Source: Escherichia coli
Lineage (GTDB): Bacteria; Pseudomonadota; Gammaproteobacteria; Enterobacterales; Enterobacteriaceae
Length of the DNA: 64,000 bases
Reading direction: 5' to 3' (one strand)
Assembly: GCF_048403405.1 (NCBI RefSeq)
Contig: NZ_CP183129.1
Shown: in pieces, positions 4,789-63,773 of the stretch
How positions within the stretch are numbered: the stretch's first letter is position 1
Layout: the number at the start of each line of letters is the position of its first letter
Notes under the pieces: model-generated
Told to the model about the DNA's origin: nothing
The model's input: only the letters and a program-made list of their open reading frames with translations
Databases searched by the model: none
Translations under genes and position numbers: made by a program

Positions 4789-4994
4789 AAAAAAAAGCAC
4801 CGCAATTAGGCGGTGCTACATTAATCACTATGGACAGACAGGGTAAATGTACAGGAAGTGAAAAAAGGTAGCTTTGCTACCATGGTCTGAATCGCAGACC
4901 AATTGCAAACACAACAACACAACATCACAACCGTAAGCCAAAAGTTCACCAGAACACGCATTCCGATAAAACTTTTCGTTCCGGCTCAGGAAGT
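4789..4994 (-). ncRNA. gcvB: GcvB small regulatory RNA (Hfq-dependent regulator of amino-acid and peptide transporter mRNAs)
   Basis: Minus strand reads ACTTCCTGAGCCGGAACGAAAAGTTTTATCGG...GTTGTGATGTTGTGTTGTTGTGTTTG...AGCACCGCCTAATTGCGGTGCTTTTTTTT, matching E. coli gcvB including the GU-rich R1 region and terminator; divergent from gcvA. Confidence 0.9.
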
Positions 4995-23213: not shown

Positions 23214-23579
23214 GTCGACAGGGAGTCAGACAACGAAGTGAACATCAGGATGATGACACTTCTGAAGGACACACCAGGATGGTGTTTCAGGGAAAGGCTT
23301 CTGGATGAAGCGAAGAGGATGACGCAGGACGCGTTAAAGGACACCTCCAGGATGGAGAATGAGAACCGGTCAGGATGATTCGGTGGGTCAGGAAGGCCAG
23401 GGACACTTCAGGATGAAGTATCACATCGGGGTGGTGTGAGCAGGAAGCAATAGTTCAGGATGAACGATTGGCCGCAAGGCCAGAGGAAAAGTTGTCAAGG
23501 ATGAGCAGGGAGCAACAAAAGTAGCTGGAATGCTGCGAAACGAACCGGGAGCACTGTGAATACAGTGCTCCCTTTTTTT
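23214..23579 (+). ncRNA. csrB: CsrB sRNA (CsrA-sequestering RNA)
   Basis: Begins GTCGACAGGGAGTCAGACAACGAAG; at least 8 CAGGATG/AGGATG motifs plus further GGA motifs; ends with hairpin gggagcactgtgaatacagtgctccc plus 7-nt T run; located between syd and yqcC as in E. coli. Confidence 0.92.
23547..23579 (+). terminator. csrB intrinsic terminator
   Basis: Perfect hairpin gggagcactgt / acagtgctccc followed by TTTTTTT. Confidence 0.85.
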
Positions 23580-23624
23580 ATTCCTGCTATCCTTCGCGGC
23601 AGTTTTTCTTATTGAGGTTGCTTT

Positions 23625-34025: not shown

Positions 34026-36260
34026 ATGGTTGCGGTAAGAAGTGCACATATCAATAAGGCTGGTGAATTTGATCCGGAAAAATGGATCGCAAGTCTGGGT
34101 ATTACCAGCCAGAAGTCGTGTGAGTGCTTAGCCGAAACCTGGGCGTATTGTCTGCAACAGACGCAGGGGCATCCGGATGCCAGTCTGTTATTGTGGCGTG
34201 GTGTTGAGATGGTGGAGATCCTCTCGACATTAAGTATGGACATTGACACGCTGCGGGCGGCGCTGCTGTTCCCTCTGGCGGATGCCAACGTAGTCAGCGA
34301 AGATGTGCTGCGTGAGTGCGTCGGTAAGTCGGTCGTTAACCTTATTCACGGCGTGCGTGATATGGCGGCGATCCGCCAGCTGAAAGCGACGCATACCGAT
34401 TCTGTTTCCTCCGAACAGGTCGATAACGTTCGCCGGATGTTATTGGCGATGGTCGATGATTTTCGCTGCGTGGTCATCAAACTGGCAGAGCGTATTGCTC
34501 ATCTGCGCGAAGTAAAAGACGCGCCGGAAGATGAACGCGTACTGGCGGCAAAAGAGTGCACCAATATCTACGCGCCGTTGGCGAACCGTCTTGGGATTGG
34601 ACAACTGAAATGGGAGCTGGAAGATTACTGCTTCCGTTATCTCCACCCGACCGAATACAAACGCATCGCAAAACTGCTGCATGAACGCCGTCTCGACCGC
34701 GAACACTATATCGAAGAGTTTGTCGGCCATCTGCGCGCTGAGATGAAAGCTGAAGGCGTTAAAGCTGAAGTGTATGGTCGACCGAAACACATCTACAGCA
34801 TCTGGCGCAAAATGCAGAAAAAGAACCTCGCCTTCGATGAGCTGTTTGATGTGCGTGCGGTACGTATTGTCGCCGAGCGTTTACAGGATTGCTATGCCGC
34901 ACTGGGGATAGTGCACACTCACTATCGCCACCTGCCGGATGAGTTTGACGATTACGTCGCTAACCCGAAACCAAACGGTTATCAGTCTATTCATACCGTG
35001 GTTCTGGGGCCGGGTGGCAAAACCGTTGAGATCCAAATCCGCACTAAACAGATGCATGAAGATGCAGAGTTGGGTGTTGCTGCGCACTGGAAATATAAAG
35101 AGGGCGCGGCAGCTGGCGGCGCACGTTCGGGACATGAAGACCGGATTGCCTGGCTGCGTAAACTGATTGCGTGGCAGGAAGAGATGGCTGATTCCGGCGA
35201 AATGCTCGACGAAGTACGTAGCCAGGTCTTTGACGACCGGGTGTACGTCTTTACGCCGAAAGGTGATGTCGTTGATTTGCCTGCGGGATCAACACCGCTG
35301 GACTTCGCTTACCACATCCACAGTGATGTCGGACACCGCTGCATCGGGGCAAAAATTGGCGGGCGCATTGTGCCGTTCACCTACCAGCTGCAGATGGGCG
35401 ACCAGATTGAAATTATCACCCAGAAACAGCCGAACCCCAGCCGTGACTGGTTAAACCCAAACCTCGGTTACGTCACAACCAGCCGTGGGCGTTCGAAAAT
35501 TCACGCCTGGTTCCGTAAACAGGACCGTGACAAAAACATTCTGGCTGGGCGGCAAATCCTTGACGACGAGCTGGAACATCTGGGGATCAGCCTGAAAGAA
35601 GCAGAAAAACATCTGCTGCCGCGTTACAACTTCAATGATGTCGACGAGTTGCTGGCGGCAATTGGTGGCGGGGATATCCGTCTCAATCAGATGGTGAACT
35701 TCCTGCAATCGCAATTTAATAAGCCGAGTGCCGAAGAGCAGGATGCCGCCGCGCTGAAGCAACTTCAGCAAAAAAGCTATACGCCGCAAAACCGCAGTAA
35801 AGATAACGGTCGTGTGGTGGTAGAAGGTGTCGGTAACCTGATGCACCACATCGCGCGCTGCTGCCAGCCGATTCCTGGAGATGAGATTGTCGGCTTCATT
35901 ACCCAGGGGCGCGGTATTTCAGTGCATCGTGCAGACTGTGAGCAACTGGCGGAACTGCGCTCCCATGCGCCAGAACGCATTGTTGACGCGGTATGGGGCG
36001 AGAGCTACTCCGCCGGATATTCGCTGGTGGTCCGGGTGATGGCCAATGATCGCAGTGGATTATTGCGTGATATCACGACCATTCTTGCCAACGAGAAGGT
36101 GAACGTGCTTGGCGTTGCCAGCCGTAGCGACACTAAACAGCAACTGGCGACTATCGACATGACCATTGAGATTTACAATCTGCAAGTGCTGGGCCGCGTG
36201 CTGGGTAAACTCAATCAGGTGCCGGATGTTATCGACGCGCGTCGGTTGCACGGGAGTTAG
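34026..36260 (+). CDS. relA: GTP pyrophosphokinase ((p)ppGpp synthetase I)
   Basis: 744 aa MVAVRSAHINKAGEFDPEKWIASLG... matches RelA. Confidence 0.96.
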   Translation: MVAVRSAHINKAGEFDPEKWIASLGITSQKSCECLAETWAYCLQQTQGHPDASLLLWRGVEMVEILSTLSMDIDTLRAALLFPLADANVVSEDVLRECVGKSVVNLIHGVRDMAAIRQLKATHTDSVSSEQVDNVRRMLLAMVDDFRCVVIKLAERIAHLREVKDAPEDERVLAAKECTNIYAPLANRLGIGQLKWELEDYCFRYLHPTEYKRIAKLLHERRLDREHYIEEFVGHLRAEMKAEGVKAEVYGRPKHIYSIWRKMQKKNLAFDELFDVRAVRIVAERLQDCYAALGIVHTHYRHLPDEFDDYVANPKPNGYQSIHTVVLGPGGKTVEIQIRTKQMHEDAELGVAAHWKYKEGAAAGGARSGHEDRIAWLRKLIAWQEEMADSGEMLDEVRSQVFDDRVYVFTPKGDVVDLPAGSTPLDFAYHIHSDVGHRCIGAKIGGRIVPFTYQLQMGDQIEIITQKQPNPSRDWLNPNLGYVTTSRGRSKIHAWFRKQDRDKNILAGRQILDDELEHLGISLKEAEKHLLPRYNFNDVDELLAAIGGGDIRLNQMVNFLQSQFNKPSAEEQDAAALKQLQQKSYTPQNRSKDNGRVVVEGVGNLMHHIARCCQPIPGDEIVGFITQGRGISVHRADCEQLAELRSHAPERIVDAVWGESYSAGYSLVVRVMANDRSGLLRDITTILANEKVNVLGVASRSDTKQQLATIDMTIEIYNLQVLGRVLGKLNQVPDVIDARRLHGS

Positions 36261-36276
36261 GCCGAAATTAGCTCGT

Positions 36277-36315
36277 ATCTACAATGTAGATTGATATATA
36301 CTGTATCTACATATG
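36277..36315. promoter_or_regulatory. mazEF promoter/operator palindromes (alternating palindrome)
   Basis: Perfect palindrome atctacaATGtagat (36277-36291) followed by ttgatatatactgtatctacata, the known MazE-MazF autoregulatory site upstream of mazE. Confidence 0.7.
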
Positions 36316-36337
36316 ATAGCGGTTTGAGGAAAGGGTT

Positions 36338-36586
36338 ATGATCCACAGTAGCGTAAAGCGTTGGGGAAATTCACCGGCGGTGCGGATCCCGGCTACGTTA
36401 ATGCAGGCGCTCAATCTGAATATTGATGATGAAGTGAAGATTGACCTGGTGGATGGCAAATTAATTATTGAGCCAGTGCGTAAAGAGCCCGTATTTACGC
36501 TTGCTGAACTGGTCAACGACATCACGCCGGAAAACCTCCACGAGAATATCGACTGGGGAGAGCCGAAAGATAAGGAAGTCTGGTAA
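36338..36586 (+). CDS. mazE: Antitoxin MazE
   Basis: 82 aa [27 protein letters not shown]... exact MazE-like sequence (AbrB/SpoVT fold). Confidence 0.96.
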
Positions 36587-36921
36587 TGGTAAGCCGATAC
36601 GTACCCGATATGGGCGATCTGATTTGGGTTGATTTTGACCCGACAAAAGGTAGCGAGCAAGCTGGACATCGTCCGGCTGTTGTCCTGAGTCCGTTCATGT
36701 ACAACAACAAAACAGGTATGTGTCTGTGTGTTCCTTGTACAACGCAATCAAAAGGATATCCGTTCGAAGTTGTTTTATCCGGTCAGGAACGTGATGGCGT
36801 AGCGTTAGCTGATCAGGTAAAAAGTATCGCCTGGCGGGCAAGAGGAGCAACGAAGAAAGGAACAGTTGCCCCAGAGGAATTACAACTCATTAAAGCCAAA
36901 ATTAACGTACTGATTGGGTAG
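36586..36921 (+). CDS. mazF: mRNA interferase toxin MazF (ACA-specific endoribonuclease)
   Basis: 111 aa [36 protein letters not shown]...; start overlaps mazE stop. Confidence 0.96.
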   Translation: MVSRYVPDMGDLIWVDFDPTKGSEQAGHRPAVVLSPFMYNNKTGMCLCVPCTTQSKGYPFEVVLSGQERDGVALADQVKSIAWRARGATKKGTVAPEELQLIKAKINVLIG

Positions 36922-36992
36922 GTGTTACTAACTCACTTCTATTCTGGTCACAGGTTTCCACCTGACAGACCCGCAATTTTCAGGACATTCTA

Positions 36993-37784
36993 ATGAATCA
37001 AATCGACCGTTTGCTCACTATTATGCAGCGCCTGCGCGATCCGGAAAACGGCTGCCCGTGGGATAAAGAGCAGACATTTGCCACCATTGCGCCTTACACC
37101 CTTGAAGAAACCTACGAGGTGCTGGACGCCATCGCCCGTGAAGATTTTGACGATCTTCGCGGTGAACTGGGCGATCTGCTATTCCAGGTGGTGTTTTACG
37201 CGCAAATGGCTCAGGAAGAAGGGCGCTTTGACTTTAATGATATTTGCGCTGCTATTAGCGATAAATTAGAACGTCGCCATCCGCATGTTTTTGCTGACAG
37301 TTCTGCCGAAAACAGTAGTGAAGTGCTTGCCCGTTGGGAGCAAATTAAAACCGAAGAGCGCGCGCAGAAAGCGCAGCATTCGGCGCTGGACGATATTCCT
37401 CGTAGTTTACCGGCTTTAATGCGTGCGCAAAAAATCCAGAAACGTTGCGCCAACGTTGGCTTCGACTGGACGACGCTTGGTCCGGTAGTCGATAAAGTCT
37501 ACGAAGAGATCGACGAGGTGATGTACGAGGCGCGGCAGGCTGTTGTCGACCAGGCTAAACTGGAGGAGGAAATGGGTGACCTGCTGTTTGCCACGGTCAA
37601 TCTGGCTCGTCATTTAGGGACAAAAGCGGAAATCGCATTGCAAAAAGCGAACGAAAAATTCGAGCGTCGTTTTCGCGAAGTGGAGCGTATTGTTGCCGCG
37701 CGTGGACTGGAAATGACAGGTGTTGACCTCGAAACAATGGAAGAAGTCTGGCAACAGGTAAAACGGCAGGAAATTGATCTCTAA
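36993..37784 (+). CDS. mazG: Nucleoside triphosphate pyrophosphohydrolase MazG
   Basis: 263 aa MNQIDRLLTIMQRLRDPENGCPWDKEQTF... matches MazG. Confidence 0.95.
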   Translation: MNQIDRLLTIMQRLRDPENGCPWDKEQTFATIAPYTLEETYEVLDAIAREDFDDLRGELGDLLFQVVFYAQMAQEEGRFDFNDICAAISDKLERRHPHVFADSSAENSSEVLARWEQIKTEERAQKAQHSALDDIPRSLPALMRAQKIQKRCANVGFDWTTLGPVVDKVYEEIDEVMYEARQAVVDQAKLEEEMGDLLFATVNLARHLGTKAEIALQKANEKFERRFREVERIVAARGLEMTGVDLETMEEVWQQVKRQEIDL

Positions 37785-43069: not shown

Positions 43070-43270
43070 TAATTTTTCGTTGGAGTGAAAATTATTGCGG
43101 TGAAATTTGGTAGATTTTAGTTTGAATAGAGTTATTTTAAATATTTATCTTTTTAATCAATGGATTAAATGCTCTTTAACATAATGGATGTGTTGTTTGT
43201 GTGATCCTGTAAAGTTGGTAGATTGTGACTGGCTTAAAAAATCATTAATTAATAATAGGTTATGTTTAGA
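43070..43270 (+). promoter_or_regulatory. CRISPR leader (AT-rich, promoter and spacer-acquisition signals)
   Basis: About 200 bp AT-rich sequence ending ...aatcattaattaataataggttatgtttaga directly abutting the first repeat; degenerate repeats lie at the opposite end of the array, fixing polarity; left boundary approximate. Confidence 0.55.
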
Positions 43271-44031
43271 GTGTTCCCCGCGCCAGCGGGGATAAACCGC
43301 GTTCAGCGTTGCTGGGCTGCGCAATGGACTGGTGTTCCCCGCGCCAGCGGGGATAAACCGCGGAGTTTTCACGGAACGCACAGCGAATTATGGTGTTCCC
43401 CGCGCCAGCGGGGATAAACCGCCGATAAATTTTCGCCCCGTTTCCAGCGCCGCGTGTTCCCCGCGCCAGCGGGGATAAACCGTTCAAACTGTAGGGATCG
43501 GCAATGGTGCCGAAGTGTTCCCCGCGCCAGCGGGGATAAACCGGGGCATTAGAATAACTTAAATGGAAAAAGAAAGTGTTCCCCGCGCCAGCGGGGATAA
43601 ACCGTCAGCCAGCACATAATTTTTATAGTCAGTATTGTGTTCCCCGCGCCAGCGGGGATAAACCGAAAGAGGTTATCGAGCGATATAACGCGTCCATGTG
43701 TTCCCCGCGCCAGCGGGGATAAACCGGTGCCTGGCGTCCATCTATTCACATGCCGCGCGTGTTCCCCGCGCCAGCGGGGATAAACCGTATTGGCGACGAT
43801 GGCATACCAGGACTACTCCGTGTTCCCCGCGCCAGCGGGGATAAACCGGCTCAGCGTCTGCTCTGGTGCCTCGCCCGTGAGTGTTCCCCGCGCCAGCGGG
43901 GATAAACCGGACCGTTACGGGCGCGTTCTTGGACTTGTTGAGTGTTCCCCACATCAGCGGGGATAAACCGGACACAGAGCGCCGCTATAGCGCCTATGCC
44001 AAGAGTTTCCCGCACCAGCGGGAATAAACCA
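43271..44031 (+). CRISPR. Type I-E CRISPR array: 13 repeats of 29 bp, 12 spacers of 32 bp (the queE-ygcE array of E. coli)
   Basis: Repeat GTGTTCCCCGCGCCAGCGGGGATAAACCG at 43271, 43332, 43393, 43454, 43515, 43576, 43637, 43698, 43759, 43820, 43881, then degenerate copies at 43942 (gtgttccccacatcagcggggataaaccg) and 44003 (gagtttcccgcaccagcgggaataaacca); exact 61-bp period. Confidence 0.97.
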
Positions 44032-44500
44032 CCATATAACCCGTTATCTCTTTCTCAAGTTTTTATATTAGCTGTACTTGTAATAAGCAACATATCCACG
44101 TAACACCTCATGTTCAAAATAGTTCTCCATGTCAGAGAAGTTCACAATTATCGATACAAAAAATTAAATTTAATCAAAGTGTTATTTGTATGATTCTTAA
44201 ATCGTTAAGAAATTTTAATCTATTATTTTTTTAATATTGAATTAATGCCTGTTAATTTTTTCTTTAGAATAACAGTGTGTTTTTTAAGCTTGTTATTCAT
44301 TGATTAAGTAATAAATCTGGAAGTTTGTCTTTGTTTTGAGGCTAATGAGTGGTTTTACATAACCGTCTCTATAGGCTGTTGATGAATAGTTCTTATGAAT
44401 AAAGATATCCAGTTCATACTTTAAATGAAAATTGATAAAGTACGGTTTGCGTTGTCTTTTATTCTAAAGACATCGAGTGTAGTTAATATTCCTTGTAAAA

Positions 44501-44623
44501 ACAGGGATAAACCGAACTAGTTAAAGTTTTTATTATGTTCCCTGCATCAGCGGGGATAAACCGGACTTGTTATCATTTTTTAAGTTGTCGAACTTATGTT
44601 CCCCACGTCAGCGGGGATAACCA
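44501..44623 (+). CRISPR. Decayed satellite CRISPR array (truncated repeat, two degenerate repeats, one 32-bp spacer)
   Basis: Partial repeat cagggataaaccg (ends 44514), degenerate repeats atgttccctgcatcagcggggataaaccg (44535-44563) and atgttccccacgtcagcggggataacc (44596-44623) separated by a 32-bp spacer; preceded by about 470 bp of AT-rich leader-like sequence. Confidence 0.8.
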
Positions 44624-60517: not shown

Positions 60518-60725
60518 GCGAGCAGCATTCCGGCATTTAAAGGTGAACATCGCAGGGAGAATTAACAGGTATAGAATGGAGTTGGGTGCTTGAGGCTGTC
60601 TGGCGTTAAGCATTCGCGAGGTTCCAGATGGACAAAAGCCCCAGGCGATATTTCTATCAACCTGAGGCCAGCGTTCGAACCTAAGCAATTCGAATGTTAG
60701 TCTCTTCTTTGCAGGGAGGCAAGAC

Positions 60726-60878
60726 ATGCTGACAAAATATGCCCTTGTGGCAATCATCGTACTGTGTTGTACAGTACTGGGATTCACGCTGATGGTAGGC
60801 GACTCGTTGTGTGAGTTGAGTATCAGAGAACGTGGTATGGAGTTTAAGGCAGTTCTCGCTTACGAATCGAAGAAGTAG
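60726..60878 (+). CDS. Hok-family type I toxin (50-aa small membrane protein), part of a hok/sok-like locus
   Basis: [53 protein letters not shown]: N-terminal TM helix plus conserved Hok motif DSLCE...R...[11 protein letters not shown]; below the 60-aa cutoff of the ORF track; followed by hairpin cgcgggg gtaaaa ccccgcg (60885-60904) and a T run; K-12 carries a hok/sok-type locus (sokX) at this position. Confidence 0.8.
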
Positions 60879-61115: not shown

Positions 61116-63773
61116 GTGACTTTCTTTGATTTCTGGGGAAAAACCCGACGTGGCGAGAAAGAGGGTGGTGACGACTATCACCTTCTTTGCTGGCATTCGC
61201 TGGATGTAGCCGCGATGGGCTATTTAATGGTTAAAAGCAATTGCTTCGGGCTGGCTGACTATTTTCGTCAACTAGGTTTCGCTGATACGGAGCAGGCAGC
61301 ACAATTTTTCGCCTGGTTGCTGTGCTGGCACGATACTGGAAAATTTGCCCGCTCTTTTCAGCAACTTTACCTGCACCCGCAACTCAAGGTTCCGGAAAGC
61401 TCTAGAAAAAATTACGAAAAAATCTCTCATTCAACGCTGGGTTACTGGTTGTGGCACCATTATTTAAGTGAATGCGAAGAATTGCTTCCTTCATCTTCAC
61501 TCTCTCCGCGCAAACTTAAACGGGTGATAGAGATGTGGATGCCCATGACTACCGGGCATCATGGTCGCCCGCCTGACCGTATGGATGAACTGGATAATTT
61601 TCTGCCTGAAGACAAAGCCGCCGCGCGAGATTTTCTCCTTGTAATCAAGGCACTGTTTCCTCTCATCGAGATCCCCGCATTCTGGGATGATGACGATGGC
61701 GTTGAACTTTTAAAACAACTTTCCTGGTATATCTCTGCAACTGTCGTACTTGCAGACTGGACGGGATCGTCAACGCGATTTTTTCCACGCGTCGCGCAGG
61801 CAATGGATATTGAAGATTACTGGCAGAAGGCTTTAGTTCAGGCTCAAAACGCATTAACCGTCTTTCCTCCAAAAGCACAAACCGCGCCTTTCACCGGAAT
61901 TAATACGCTGTTTCCTTTTATTGAGCACCCGACACCGTTACAGCAAAAGGTGCTGGATCTGGATATCAGCCAGCCTGGGCCACAGTTATTTATTCTGGAG
62001 GATGTGACTGGCGCAGGTAAAACAGAAGCGGCGCTTATCCTGGCCCACAGGTTGATGGCTGCGGGGAAAGCACAGGGTTTGTTTTTTGGCCTGCCAACAA
62101 TGGCAACGGCCAATGCCATGTACGATCGGCTGGTAAAAACCTGGCTTGCTTTCTATTCGCCAGAATCCCGCCCCAGCCTGGTGCTGGCACACAGTGCCCG
62201 CACATTAATGGACCGCTTTAATGAATCACTCTGGTCCGGTGATTTAGTCGGGTCAGAAGAACCGGATGAACAAGCGTTCAGTCAGGGATGTGCGGCCTGG
62301 TTTGCCGACAGTAACAAGAAGGCGTTGCTGGCTGAAATTGGCGTCGGCACGCTGGATCAGGCGATGATGGCGGTGATGCCGTTTAAACATAATAATCTGC
62401 GGCTTCTGGGACTGAGTAACAAAATCCTGCTGGCTGATGAGATCCATGCCTGTGACGCTTACATGTCGTGCATTCTTGAAGGATTGATTGAGCGGCAGGC
62501 GCGTGGCGGAAACAGCGTTATTTTGCTTTCTGCCACGTTATCTCAACAGCAGCGCGACAAACTCGTTGCTGCCTTTGCGCGTGGTGCAGAGGGTCAGCAA
62601 GAAGCTCCGTTCCTGGAAAAGGATGATTACCCCTGGCTGACGCACGTTACGAAATCGGATGTGCATTCACACCGGGTAGCAACGCGCAAAGACGTTGAGC
62701 GTAGCGTGAGCGTGGGTTGGCTTCATAGCGAACAAGAGTGTATTGCGCGTATCGAATCGGCGGTAAGTCAGGGGAAATGCATCGCCTGGATCCGGAATTC
62801 TGTCGATGATGCTATTAAAGTTCATCGTCAGTTGCTTGCCCGCGGCGTCATTCCTGCTTCCAGCCTTTCTCTGTTTCATAGCCGCTTTGCTTTTAGCGAT
62901 CGCCAGCGAATTGAAACGGAAACGCTGGCACGCTTCGGTAAAGAAGATAGCTCACAGCGTGCCGGAAAAGTCCTCATTTGTACTCAGGTCTTAGAGTCGA
63001 GCGTTGATTGCGATATGGACGAAATGATTTCCGACCTGGCCCCTGTTGATTTGCTGATCCAGCGAGCGGGGCGATTACAGCGGCATATCCGCGATATTAA
63101 TGGTCAGTTAAAGCGTGACGGAAAAGACGAGCGTTCTCCTCCTGAATTGCTGATTCTGGCCCCCGTCTGGGACGACGCTCCAGGTGACGAATGGTTCGGC
63201 AGTGCCATGCGTAACAGTGCATATGTCTATCCCGATCATGGACGAATCTGGCTGACGCAGCGTGTACTGCGTGAGCAAGGCGCGATTCAAATGCCACACG
63301 CAGCCCGCCTTCTTATTGAATCAGTCTACGGTGAGGACGTGGTAATGCCGGAAGGATTTGCCCGCAGCGAGCAGGAACAAGTGGGCAAATATTACTGCGA
63401 TCGCGCAATGGCTAAAAAGTTTGTGCTGAACTTCAGGCCCGGCTATGCCGCCAATATCAACGATTACCTCCCGGAAAAGCTGTCGACACGTCTGGCTGAG
63501 GAGTCTGTTTCCCTGTGGCTGGCTACCTGTATTGACGGTGTGGTGAAGCCTTATGCCACCGGTGCTCACGCATGGGAAATGAGCGTTGTCAGAGTGCGTC
63601 GAAGCTGGTGGAAAAAACATTGCGATGAGTTTTCTTTACTGGAAGGGGAAGCGTTCAGGCAGTGGTGCGTTGAACAGCGGCAAGATCCGGAGATGGCAAA
63701 TGTGATTTTAGTTACCGATGACGAAAGTTGCGGGTATTCGGCTAGGGAGGGATTGATTGGTAAGGTTGATTGA
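61116..63773 (+). CDS. cas3: Cas3 (type I-E CRISPR-associated HD nuclease / SF2 helicase), non-K-12 allele
   Basis: 885 aa; HD motifs (HSLDVAA, WHDTGKF), helicase motif I TGAGKTEA, motif II DEIH, motif III SATL, motif VI QRAGRLQRH; GTG start; sits directly downstream of cysH as in E. coli; N-terminal sequence differs from the K-12 Cas3 I recall (MEPFKYICHYWGKS...). Confidence 0.9.
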   Translation: MTFFDFWGKTRRGEKEGGDDYHLLCWHSLDVAAMGYLMVKSNCFGLADYFRQLGFADTEQAAQFFAWLLCWHDTGKFARSFQQLYLHPQLKVPESSRKNYEKISHSTLGYWLWHHYLSECEELLPSSSLSPRKLKRVIEMWMPMTTGHHGRPPDRMDELDNFLPEDKAAARDFLLVIKALFPLIEIPAFWDDDDGVELLKQLSWYISATVVLADWTGSSTRFFPRVAQAMDIEDYWQKALVQAQNALTVFPPKAQTAPFTGINTLFPFIEHPTPLQQKVLDLDISQPGPQLFILEDVTGAGKTEAALILAHRLMAAGKAQGLFFGLPTMATANAMYDRLVKTWLAFYSPESRPSLVLAHSARTLMDRFNESLWSGDLVGSEEPDEQAFSQGCAAWFADSNKKALLAEIGVGTLDQAMMAVMPFKHNNLRLLGLSNKILLADEIHACDAYMSCILEGLIERQARGGNSVILLSATLSQQQRDKLVAAFARGAEGQQEAPFLEKDDYPWLTHVTKSDVHSHRVATRKDVERSVSVGWLHSEQECIARIESAVSQGKCIAWIRNSVDDAIKVHRQLLARGVIPASSLSLFHSRFAFSDRQRIETETLARFGKEDSSQRAGKVLICTQVLESSVDCDMDEMISDLAPVDLLIQRAGRLQRHIRDINGQLKRDGKDERSPPELLILAPVWDDAPGDEWFGSAMRNSAYVYPDHGRIWLTQRVLREQGAIQMPHAARLLIESVYGEDVVMPEGFARSEQEQVGKYYCDRAMAKKFVLNFRPGYAANINDYLPEKLSTRLAEESVSLWLATCIDGVVKPYATGAHAWEMSVVRVRRSWWKKHCDEFSLLEGEAFRQWCVEQRQDPEMANVILVTDDESCGYSAREGLIGKVD

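Follow-up and report, generated by a model that had tools for sequence, protein, structure and literature searches.

Does the segment between relA and mazG in this Escherichia coli chromosome hold an intact, working mazEF toxin-antitoxin module, and does its position tie that module to ppGpp metabolism? The stretch of DNA analyzed, referred to here as the window, comprises 64,000 nucleotides of contig NZ_CP183129.1 (RefSeq assembly GCF_048403405.1). A reading made from the sequence alone had assigned mazEF and its operator palindromes to positions 36277-36921, an interval that runs from the first palindrome base through the mazF stop codon. Our comparisons indicate, with a probability that we put at about 98%, that the locus is an intact chromosomal type II toxin-antitoxin operon, mazEF (chpA) of E. 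coli, which is presumably functional. The genes concerned are the following.

34026-36260, + strand: relA, (p)ppGpp synthetase I, 744 aa (Pfam HD_4, RelA_SpoT, TGS, and ACT_4)
36326-36330, + strand: Shine-Dalgarno-like GAGGA, 7 nt 5' of the mazE ATG (read from the sequence)
36338-36586, + strand: mazE, antitoxin, 82 aa, ATG start (open reading frame list; Pfam PF04014, PDB and K-12 identity)
36586-36921, + strand: mazF, toxin, 111 aa, ATG start (open reading frame list; Pfam PF02452, PDB and K-12 identity)
36993-37784, + strand: mazG, nucleoside triphosphate pyrophosphohydrolase, 263 aa (Pfam PF03819, E=1.6e-39)

The gene order around the locus is barA, rlmD, relA, mazE, mazF, mazG, pyrG, and eno, with spacers of 77 bp between relA and mazE and 71 bp between mazF and mazG; the last base of relA is 36260 and the first of mazG 36993, so the placement of relA directly upstream and mazG downstream given by the sequence-only reading holds. 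This is the chromosomal position of E. coli mazEF, annotated in the same way in K-12 and in the near-identical strain TUM14771, in which RefSeq lists relA, mazE, mazF, and mazG in this order. The antitoxin gene comes first, and the two genes are small, adjacent, and co-oriented, which is the type II layout of the MazEF/PemIK and Kis-Kid family. At their junction (CTGGTAATGGTAA) they share, as had been claimed, a single nucleotide: within TAATG, the A that closes the mazE stop codon TAA also opens the mazF ATG. The mazF start codon is preceded, 7 nt upstream, by a Shine-Dalgarno-like AAGGAAG.

Domain and structure searches agree on the identity of both proteins. MazE matches the MazE_antitoxin family (PF04014) over residues 6-51 (E=3.5e-14, 52.9 bits against a cut-off of 24.7) and is 100% identical over 82 residues to PDB chains 1MVF_D and 1UB4_C, so that its N-terminus is assigned to the AbrB/MazE/SpoVT type of DNA-binding domain. 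MazF matches the PemK_toxin family (PF02452) over residues 10-109 of 111 (E=5.9e-24, 84.8 bits against a cut-off of 23.1), a PemK/MazF domain with a CcdB-like SH3 barrel. It is identical to PDB chain 3NFC_A over all 111 residues and also matches 5CK9 and 1UB4_A at E ~1e-73, the solved MazF chains 3NFC, 5CK9, and 1UB4 all being 100% identical to the protein of the window. The identification as mazEF is thus borne out by Pfam domains, PDB chains, K-12 identity, and the RefSeq gene names of the near-identical genome.

The alignment to K-12 (MG1655) mazEF that the sequence-only reading had proposed as a check shows the same gene order, 1-nt overlap, and operator as in K-12 chpAI/chpAK (b2783/b2782), with MazE, MazF, and MazG 100% identical. 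Neither mazE nor mazF contains a frameshift or premature stop, the finding that would have spoken against the annotation, and both proteins match their K-12 counterparts over their full length. At the nucleotide level (584 nt compared), mazE has no differences and mazF has two SNPs, both synonymous (36675 and 36693). The relA-mazE spacer is 77 bp in both genomes, with one SNP upstream of the operator (36270), whereas the mazF-mazG spacer is 71 bp here and 70 bp in K-12, with a 1-nt indel and three SNPs. A seven-strain alignment (the window, K-12, IAI1, S88, O157:H7, strain 2D, and UPEC 536) showed MazE to be identical in all strains and MazF to differ by at most two residues; the B2 strains carry a MazF allele of their own, M9T. 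More distant relatives are the plasmid modules pemIK and parD (kis-kid) and plasmid-borne mazEF homologues, which share the PemK/MazF fold family, an AbrB-type antitoxin, and the antitoxin-then-toxin order; the structure of Kid (1M1F) matches the MazF of the window at E=7.6e-9. The plasmid homologues have 65-69% nucleotide identity over about half of the cassette defined below and serve as plasmid-maintenance modules, whereas the copy in the window is chromosomal.

The region upstream of mazE could be resolved further by comparison with published binding studies, which describe the operator as a 47-bp region with three sites for MazE dimers, named c, a, and b (PMC4333400). Its elements in the window are listed below.

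36272-36321, + strand: mazEF operator/promoter region 'cab', three MazE-dimer sites (exact match to 50/51 nt of the published oligonucleotide; K-12 identity)
36277-36291: inverted repeat ATCTACA-A-TGTAGAT within site c, arms 36277-36283 and 36285-36291, 100% complementary, 1-nt spacer
36291-36304: site a, TTGATATATACTGT, which holds the ATATAT palindrome and is the highest-affinity MazE site (PMC4333400; exact match to the published 'a' oligonucleotide)
36305-36312: third arm, ATCTACAT, within site b, 8 nt, 100% complementary to 36284-36291, 13-nt spacer

The 'cab' oligonucleotide used to measure MazE binding by ITC (PMC4333400) is found verbatim at 36272-36321 for 50 of its 51 nt, the sole mismatch being its final base, and the start of the site c oligonucleotide maps to 36275. 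The region combines inverted repeats with promoter overlap, and its identity to the 'cab' DNA that binds three MazE dimers (PMC4333400) suggests that it would be bound by the antitoxin here as well. The perfect palindrome and the alternating palindrome of the sequence-only reading were both recovered, as three arms with the sequences ATCTACA, TGTAGAT, and ATCTACA(T). The element described there as a perfect palindrome, atctacaatgtagat, is strictly an inverted repeat of 7+1+7 nt (ATCTACA / TGTAGAT). A repeat finder showed that the middle arm ATGTAGAT (36284-36291) also pairs at 100% with ATCTACAT (36305-36312) across 13 nt, and the complementarity of this arm to both its upstream and its downstream neighbor accounts for the alternating palindrome. 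It further returned a direct repeat, GTATCTACA, at 36275-36283 and from 36303, and ATATAT/TATATA palindromes at 36294-36300. The previously named inverted repeats therefore fall in sites c and b, while the best-bound site, a, is the ATATAT stretch between them.

The 15-mer inverted-repeat pattern occurs once in the 64-kb window with two mismatches allowed, compared with 0.07 occurrences expected from shuffled sequences. The three arms are invariant in the seven aligned strains, and six other positions of the 77-bp spacer vary. Position 36270, 7 bp upstream of the first palindrome, is A in the window and T in K-12; we considered a private promoter mutation and rejected it, because the same 60-mer is present in 342 of 4371 genomes and thus represents a common allele. 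Two mazEF promoters separated by 13 nt, with a Fis site upstream, have been described (PMC4803016). In a consensus scan, the sigma-70 hexamers of the published P2 and P3 were not convincingly recovered; the scan returned a 9/12 match at 36313-36342 and another match within mazE.

An additional element of the locus, which the sequence-only reading did not include, is an antisense RNA that has been characterized and annotated in K-12.

36227-36626, - strand: position homologous to the K-12 antisense RNA aMEF (ameF, b4844), mapped from K-12 annotation 2911051-2911450

As mapped, aMEF has its 5' end at 36626 inside mazF, spans the whole of mazE and the operator, and covers the final 34 nt of relA. 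The only difference from K-12 in this span is at position 36270. Both mazF SNPs (36675 and 36693) fall in the 75 bp preceding the mapped start, at about -49 and -67 and thus clear of the -10 and -35 regions. Expression of mazEF in K-12 was lowered by silent mutations in the weak, non-canonical aMEF promoter (PMC8749433). An Rfam scan of the window returned no family in the mazEF locus, aMEF included. Opposite mazE and mazF, the minus strand also has a 146-aa open reading frame with a TTG start (36307-36747), whose first codon precedes the mapped aMEF 5' end; it was set aside as most likely a mechanical open reading frame.

Since the K-12 proteins and operator are identical to those of the window, the biochemistry and regulation of the locus can be taken from the literature. 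MazF, which cuts single-stranded RNA at ACA, is kept inactive when two of its dimers are joined by one dimer of MazE, and the antitoxin is broken down by ClpAP and Lon. The mazF mRNA is itself a target of MazF; by published count, ACA occurs nine times in mazF and twice in mazE (PMC5888573). MazE binds the operator through its N-terminal domain with micromolar affinity, and this binding is strengthened by MazF at ratios close to 1:1 and weakened when MazF is in excess (PMC4333400). From the 100% identity to the characterized K-12 proteins, we infer that the MazF encoded here is an ACA-specific, ribosome-independent endoribonuclease that is neutralized by direct binding of its antitoxin.

The locus would then be expected to work as follows. 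MazF would form dimers with endoribonuclease activity against single-stranded RNA, cutting at ACA, and MazE would be a labile antitoxin whose disordered C-terminal tail would wrap MazF in a MazF2-MazE2-MazF2 complex. The N-terminal AbrB-type domain of MazE would bind c-a-b (36272-36321) over the promoter, so that the pair would repress its own transcription, more tightly with MazF bound. Once loss of MazE through ClpAP and Lon outpaced its resynthesis, free MazF would cleave mRNAs and rRNA precursors, and growth would stop. MazF would presumably also cleave its own message, given that ACA is found nine times in the mazF of the window and twice in its mazE, the same as the published counts (PMC5888573). 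A weak aMEF transcript starting within mazF may raise mazEF expression, as shown in K-12.

While the genes themselves are conserved, their presence is not universal. Searched with the segment 36200-37000, 5425 of 5426 complete E. coli genomes gave matches, but only 4415 were covered to at least 80%. A query restricted to mazEF matched 4418 genomes in 4421 places, all of them chromosomal and never on plasmids of those assemblies. The module is thus missing from about 1010 of the 5426 complete genomes (19%), in which the site is empty. The empty sites of three genomes (MZ1211, 4/1-1, and 2017-02-2CC) allowed the borders of the insertion to be placed.

36261-36958, + strand: mazEF cassette, 698 bp, comprising promoter/operator, mazE, mazF, and 37 bp of 3' flank (borders from the empty sites of three genomes)

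In these genomes (L002 1562-1656, L003 3062-3156, and L004 2949-3042), relA is followed by 95 bp and then mazG. They have the same relA and mazG flanks as the window, including identical last 34 bp before the mazG ATG, but carry a 95-bp relA-mazG spacer with 61 bp in place of the 698-bp cassette. These 61 bp contain a hairpin with a 12-bp stem and a T-rich tail, scored as terminator-like by our scan and absent from mazEF-bearing genomes. For the 95-nt spacer, the folding energy is -33.3 kcal/mol (z = -5.8). As the cassette replaces this segment with its terminator-like hairpin, it would be transcribed together with its neighbors.

The cassette has a G+C content of 46.0%, compared with 53.7% for relA and 50.7% for the window, and is a known accessory insertion: UTI89 has been named as a strain with an empty relA-mazG site, relA-mazG forms an undisturbed operon in mazEF-less strains, and Salmonella carries a parDE module at the same site (PMC7167474). 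A search for a mobile source found no phage match to the cassette. The only near-identical 'plasmid' match was discarded, since the record, at 4.8 Mb, is evidently chromosomal; genuine plasmid homologues are found mainly on conjugative plasmids from Klebsiella, Providencia, and Proteus. Comparison of the cassette borders with the empty sites revealed no flanking direct repeats. One genome shows a different arrangement: in E. coli SW07163 (L012 2788-3854), an IS1 element abuts an intact mazF, beside which only the last 19 nt of mazE remain. The remainder of the mazEF query matches a second place in that genome, so that mazF is split from its antitoxin gene and promoter.

This accessory status bears on what the module may be doing in this lineage. 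Chromosomal toxin-antitoxin modules are accessory and often lost, a course illustrated by the IS1-disrupted copy of SW07163, and the window does carry one promoter-proximal SNP (36270). It could be supposed on these grounds that mazEF is a decaying or silent remnant, with frames that are intact but no longer expressed or active in the lineage. We regard this as highly improbable. MazE and MazF match the active K-12 proteins at 100%, with gene differences limited to two synonymous changes, and the operator, the Shine-Dalgarno sequence of each gene, and the overlap are all preserved. Moreover, MazE and MazF are as closely conserved among the seven strains as described above, and the 36270 allele is shared by 342 genomes. 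No feature of the sequence speaks against an intact mazEF operon, and such reservations as there are bear on its physiology rather than its identity.

A further question is whether this operon belongs functionally to its neighbors. It has been proposed that relA, mazEF, and mazG constitute one stringent-response unit, in which ppGpp shuts off mazEF and thereby triggers MazF and programmed cell death, while MazG limits ppGpp; models of this kind by Aizenman 1996 and Gross 2006 are summarized in PMC4803016 and PMC7167474. The order relA-mazE-mazF-mazG, the short spacers of 77 bp and 71 bp, and a scan of the + strand of the mazF-mazG interval, which found no terminator-like site, are in line with such a unit. 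The scan result is also consistent with the co-transcription of mazEFG reported by Gross 2006, as cited in PMC5120126. Set against this, mazEF is missing from about 1010 of 5426 complete genomes, where mazG comes directly after relA, from which we conclude that the relA-mazG pair works without the module, and the cassette, with its G+C content of 46%, looks foreign and has a sharp border at the relA stop codon. A 2020 review states that no functional link to the neighboring cistrons has been found for mazEF and notes that the ppGpp-dependent and ppGpp-independent models contradict one another; the biological role of chromosomal mazEF is itself disputed there between programmed death, reversible stasis, phage defence, and a selfish element (PMC7167474). 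With relA-mazG standing alone in a fifth of complete E. coli genomes, adjacency is no proof of a tie to ppGpp, and we consider a single stringent-response unit unlikely. The statement in the sequence-only reading that the arrangement links a toxin module to ppGpp metabolism can therefore be retained for the adjacency, and agrees with the literature as regards co-transcription, but not for a functional link, since none has been found (PMC7167474) and 19% of genomes have the site empty.

Divergence from K-12 is unevenly distributed across the locus, amounting to 0.3% in mazEF and 3.0% in relA, the latter with 67 SNPs and two amino-acid changes. With queries of equal length, 4060 of 4418 genomes were at least 99% identical in mazEF; among 5425 genomes, 15 reached this level in the relA 3' end and 21 did so in mazG. 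An anomalous conservation of mazEF relative to its flanks was considered and dropped, as the proportions of segregating sites in the seven-strain alignment (2.0% in mazE, 3.0% in mazF, 3.8% in mazG, 2.3% in pyrG, and 4.9% in relA) removed most of the contrast. By these values, mazEF evolves much like its neighbors, and the outlier is the relA allele of this lineage. For the last 584 nt of relA, most complete E. coli genomes show about 95% identity, and the divergence of relA stops exactly at the border of the mazEF cassette. Two parts of the gene, 34472-34835 and 35744-36215, contain dense clusters of almost entirely synonymous differences from K-12. To judge from these patterns, relA looks like a recombinant (mosaic) allele.

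The rare, diverged relA 3' end, the near-K-12 mazEF cassette, and the A at 36270 could together mark a recombination breakpoint that arose as the cassette moved from one lineage to another, and relA read-through or promoter strength may have changed with it. We hold this to be a long shot; if true, it would add a small population-genetic footnote to a known accessory module.

Several other features of the window were recorded alongside the locus. Compared with the chromosome of TUM14771, its nearest complete genome, the window has only six SNPs over the first 43.4 kb. From 43422 on it no longer matches, probably because a CRISPR array differs between the strains: a type I-E array of 13 repeats with 61-bp spacing occupies 43270-44039, with a lone repeat at 44534-44571. 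The cas3 frame is open at 61116-63773 (885 aa, GTG start) and is annotated as frameshifted in TUM14771. A second toxin-antitoxin locus, of type I, lies at 60584-60878 between cysH and cas3, where an Rfam match to the sok antitoxin RNA (111.7 bits) overlaps a 50-aa open reading frame of the Hok/Gef family (60726-60878). The small RNAs CsrB (23223-23582, + strand) and GcvB (4789-4994, - strand) and three tandem tRNA-Met genes (172-466, - strand) are as expected for the region.

Taken together, these results place the mazEF of the window as a textbook locus that is already known, to which the present analysis adds small refinements only. The operator is best read as three MazE sites, the strongest of which, missed in the sequence-only reading, lies between the repeats named there, and the account of the locus is extended by the antisense RNA that overlaps mazEF. 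The value of the finding is one of annotation, in that the window holds an intact copy of one of the best-studied bacterial toxin-antitoxin modules.
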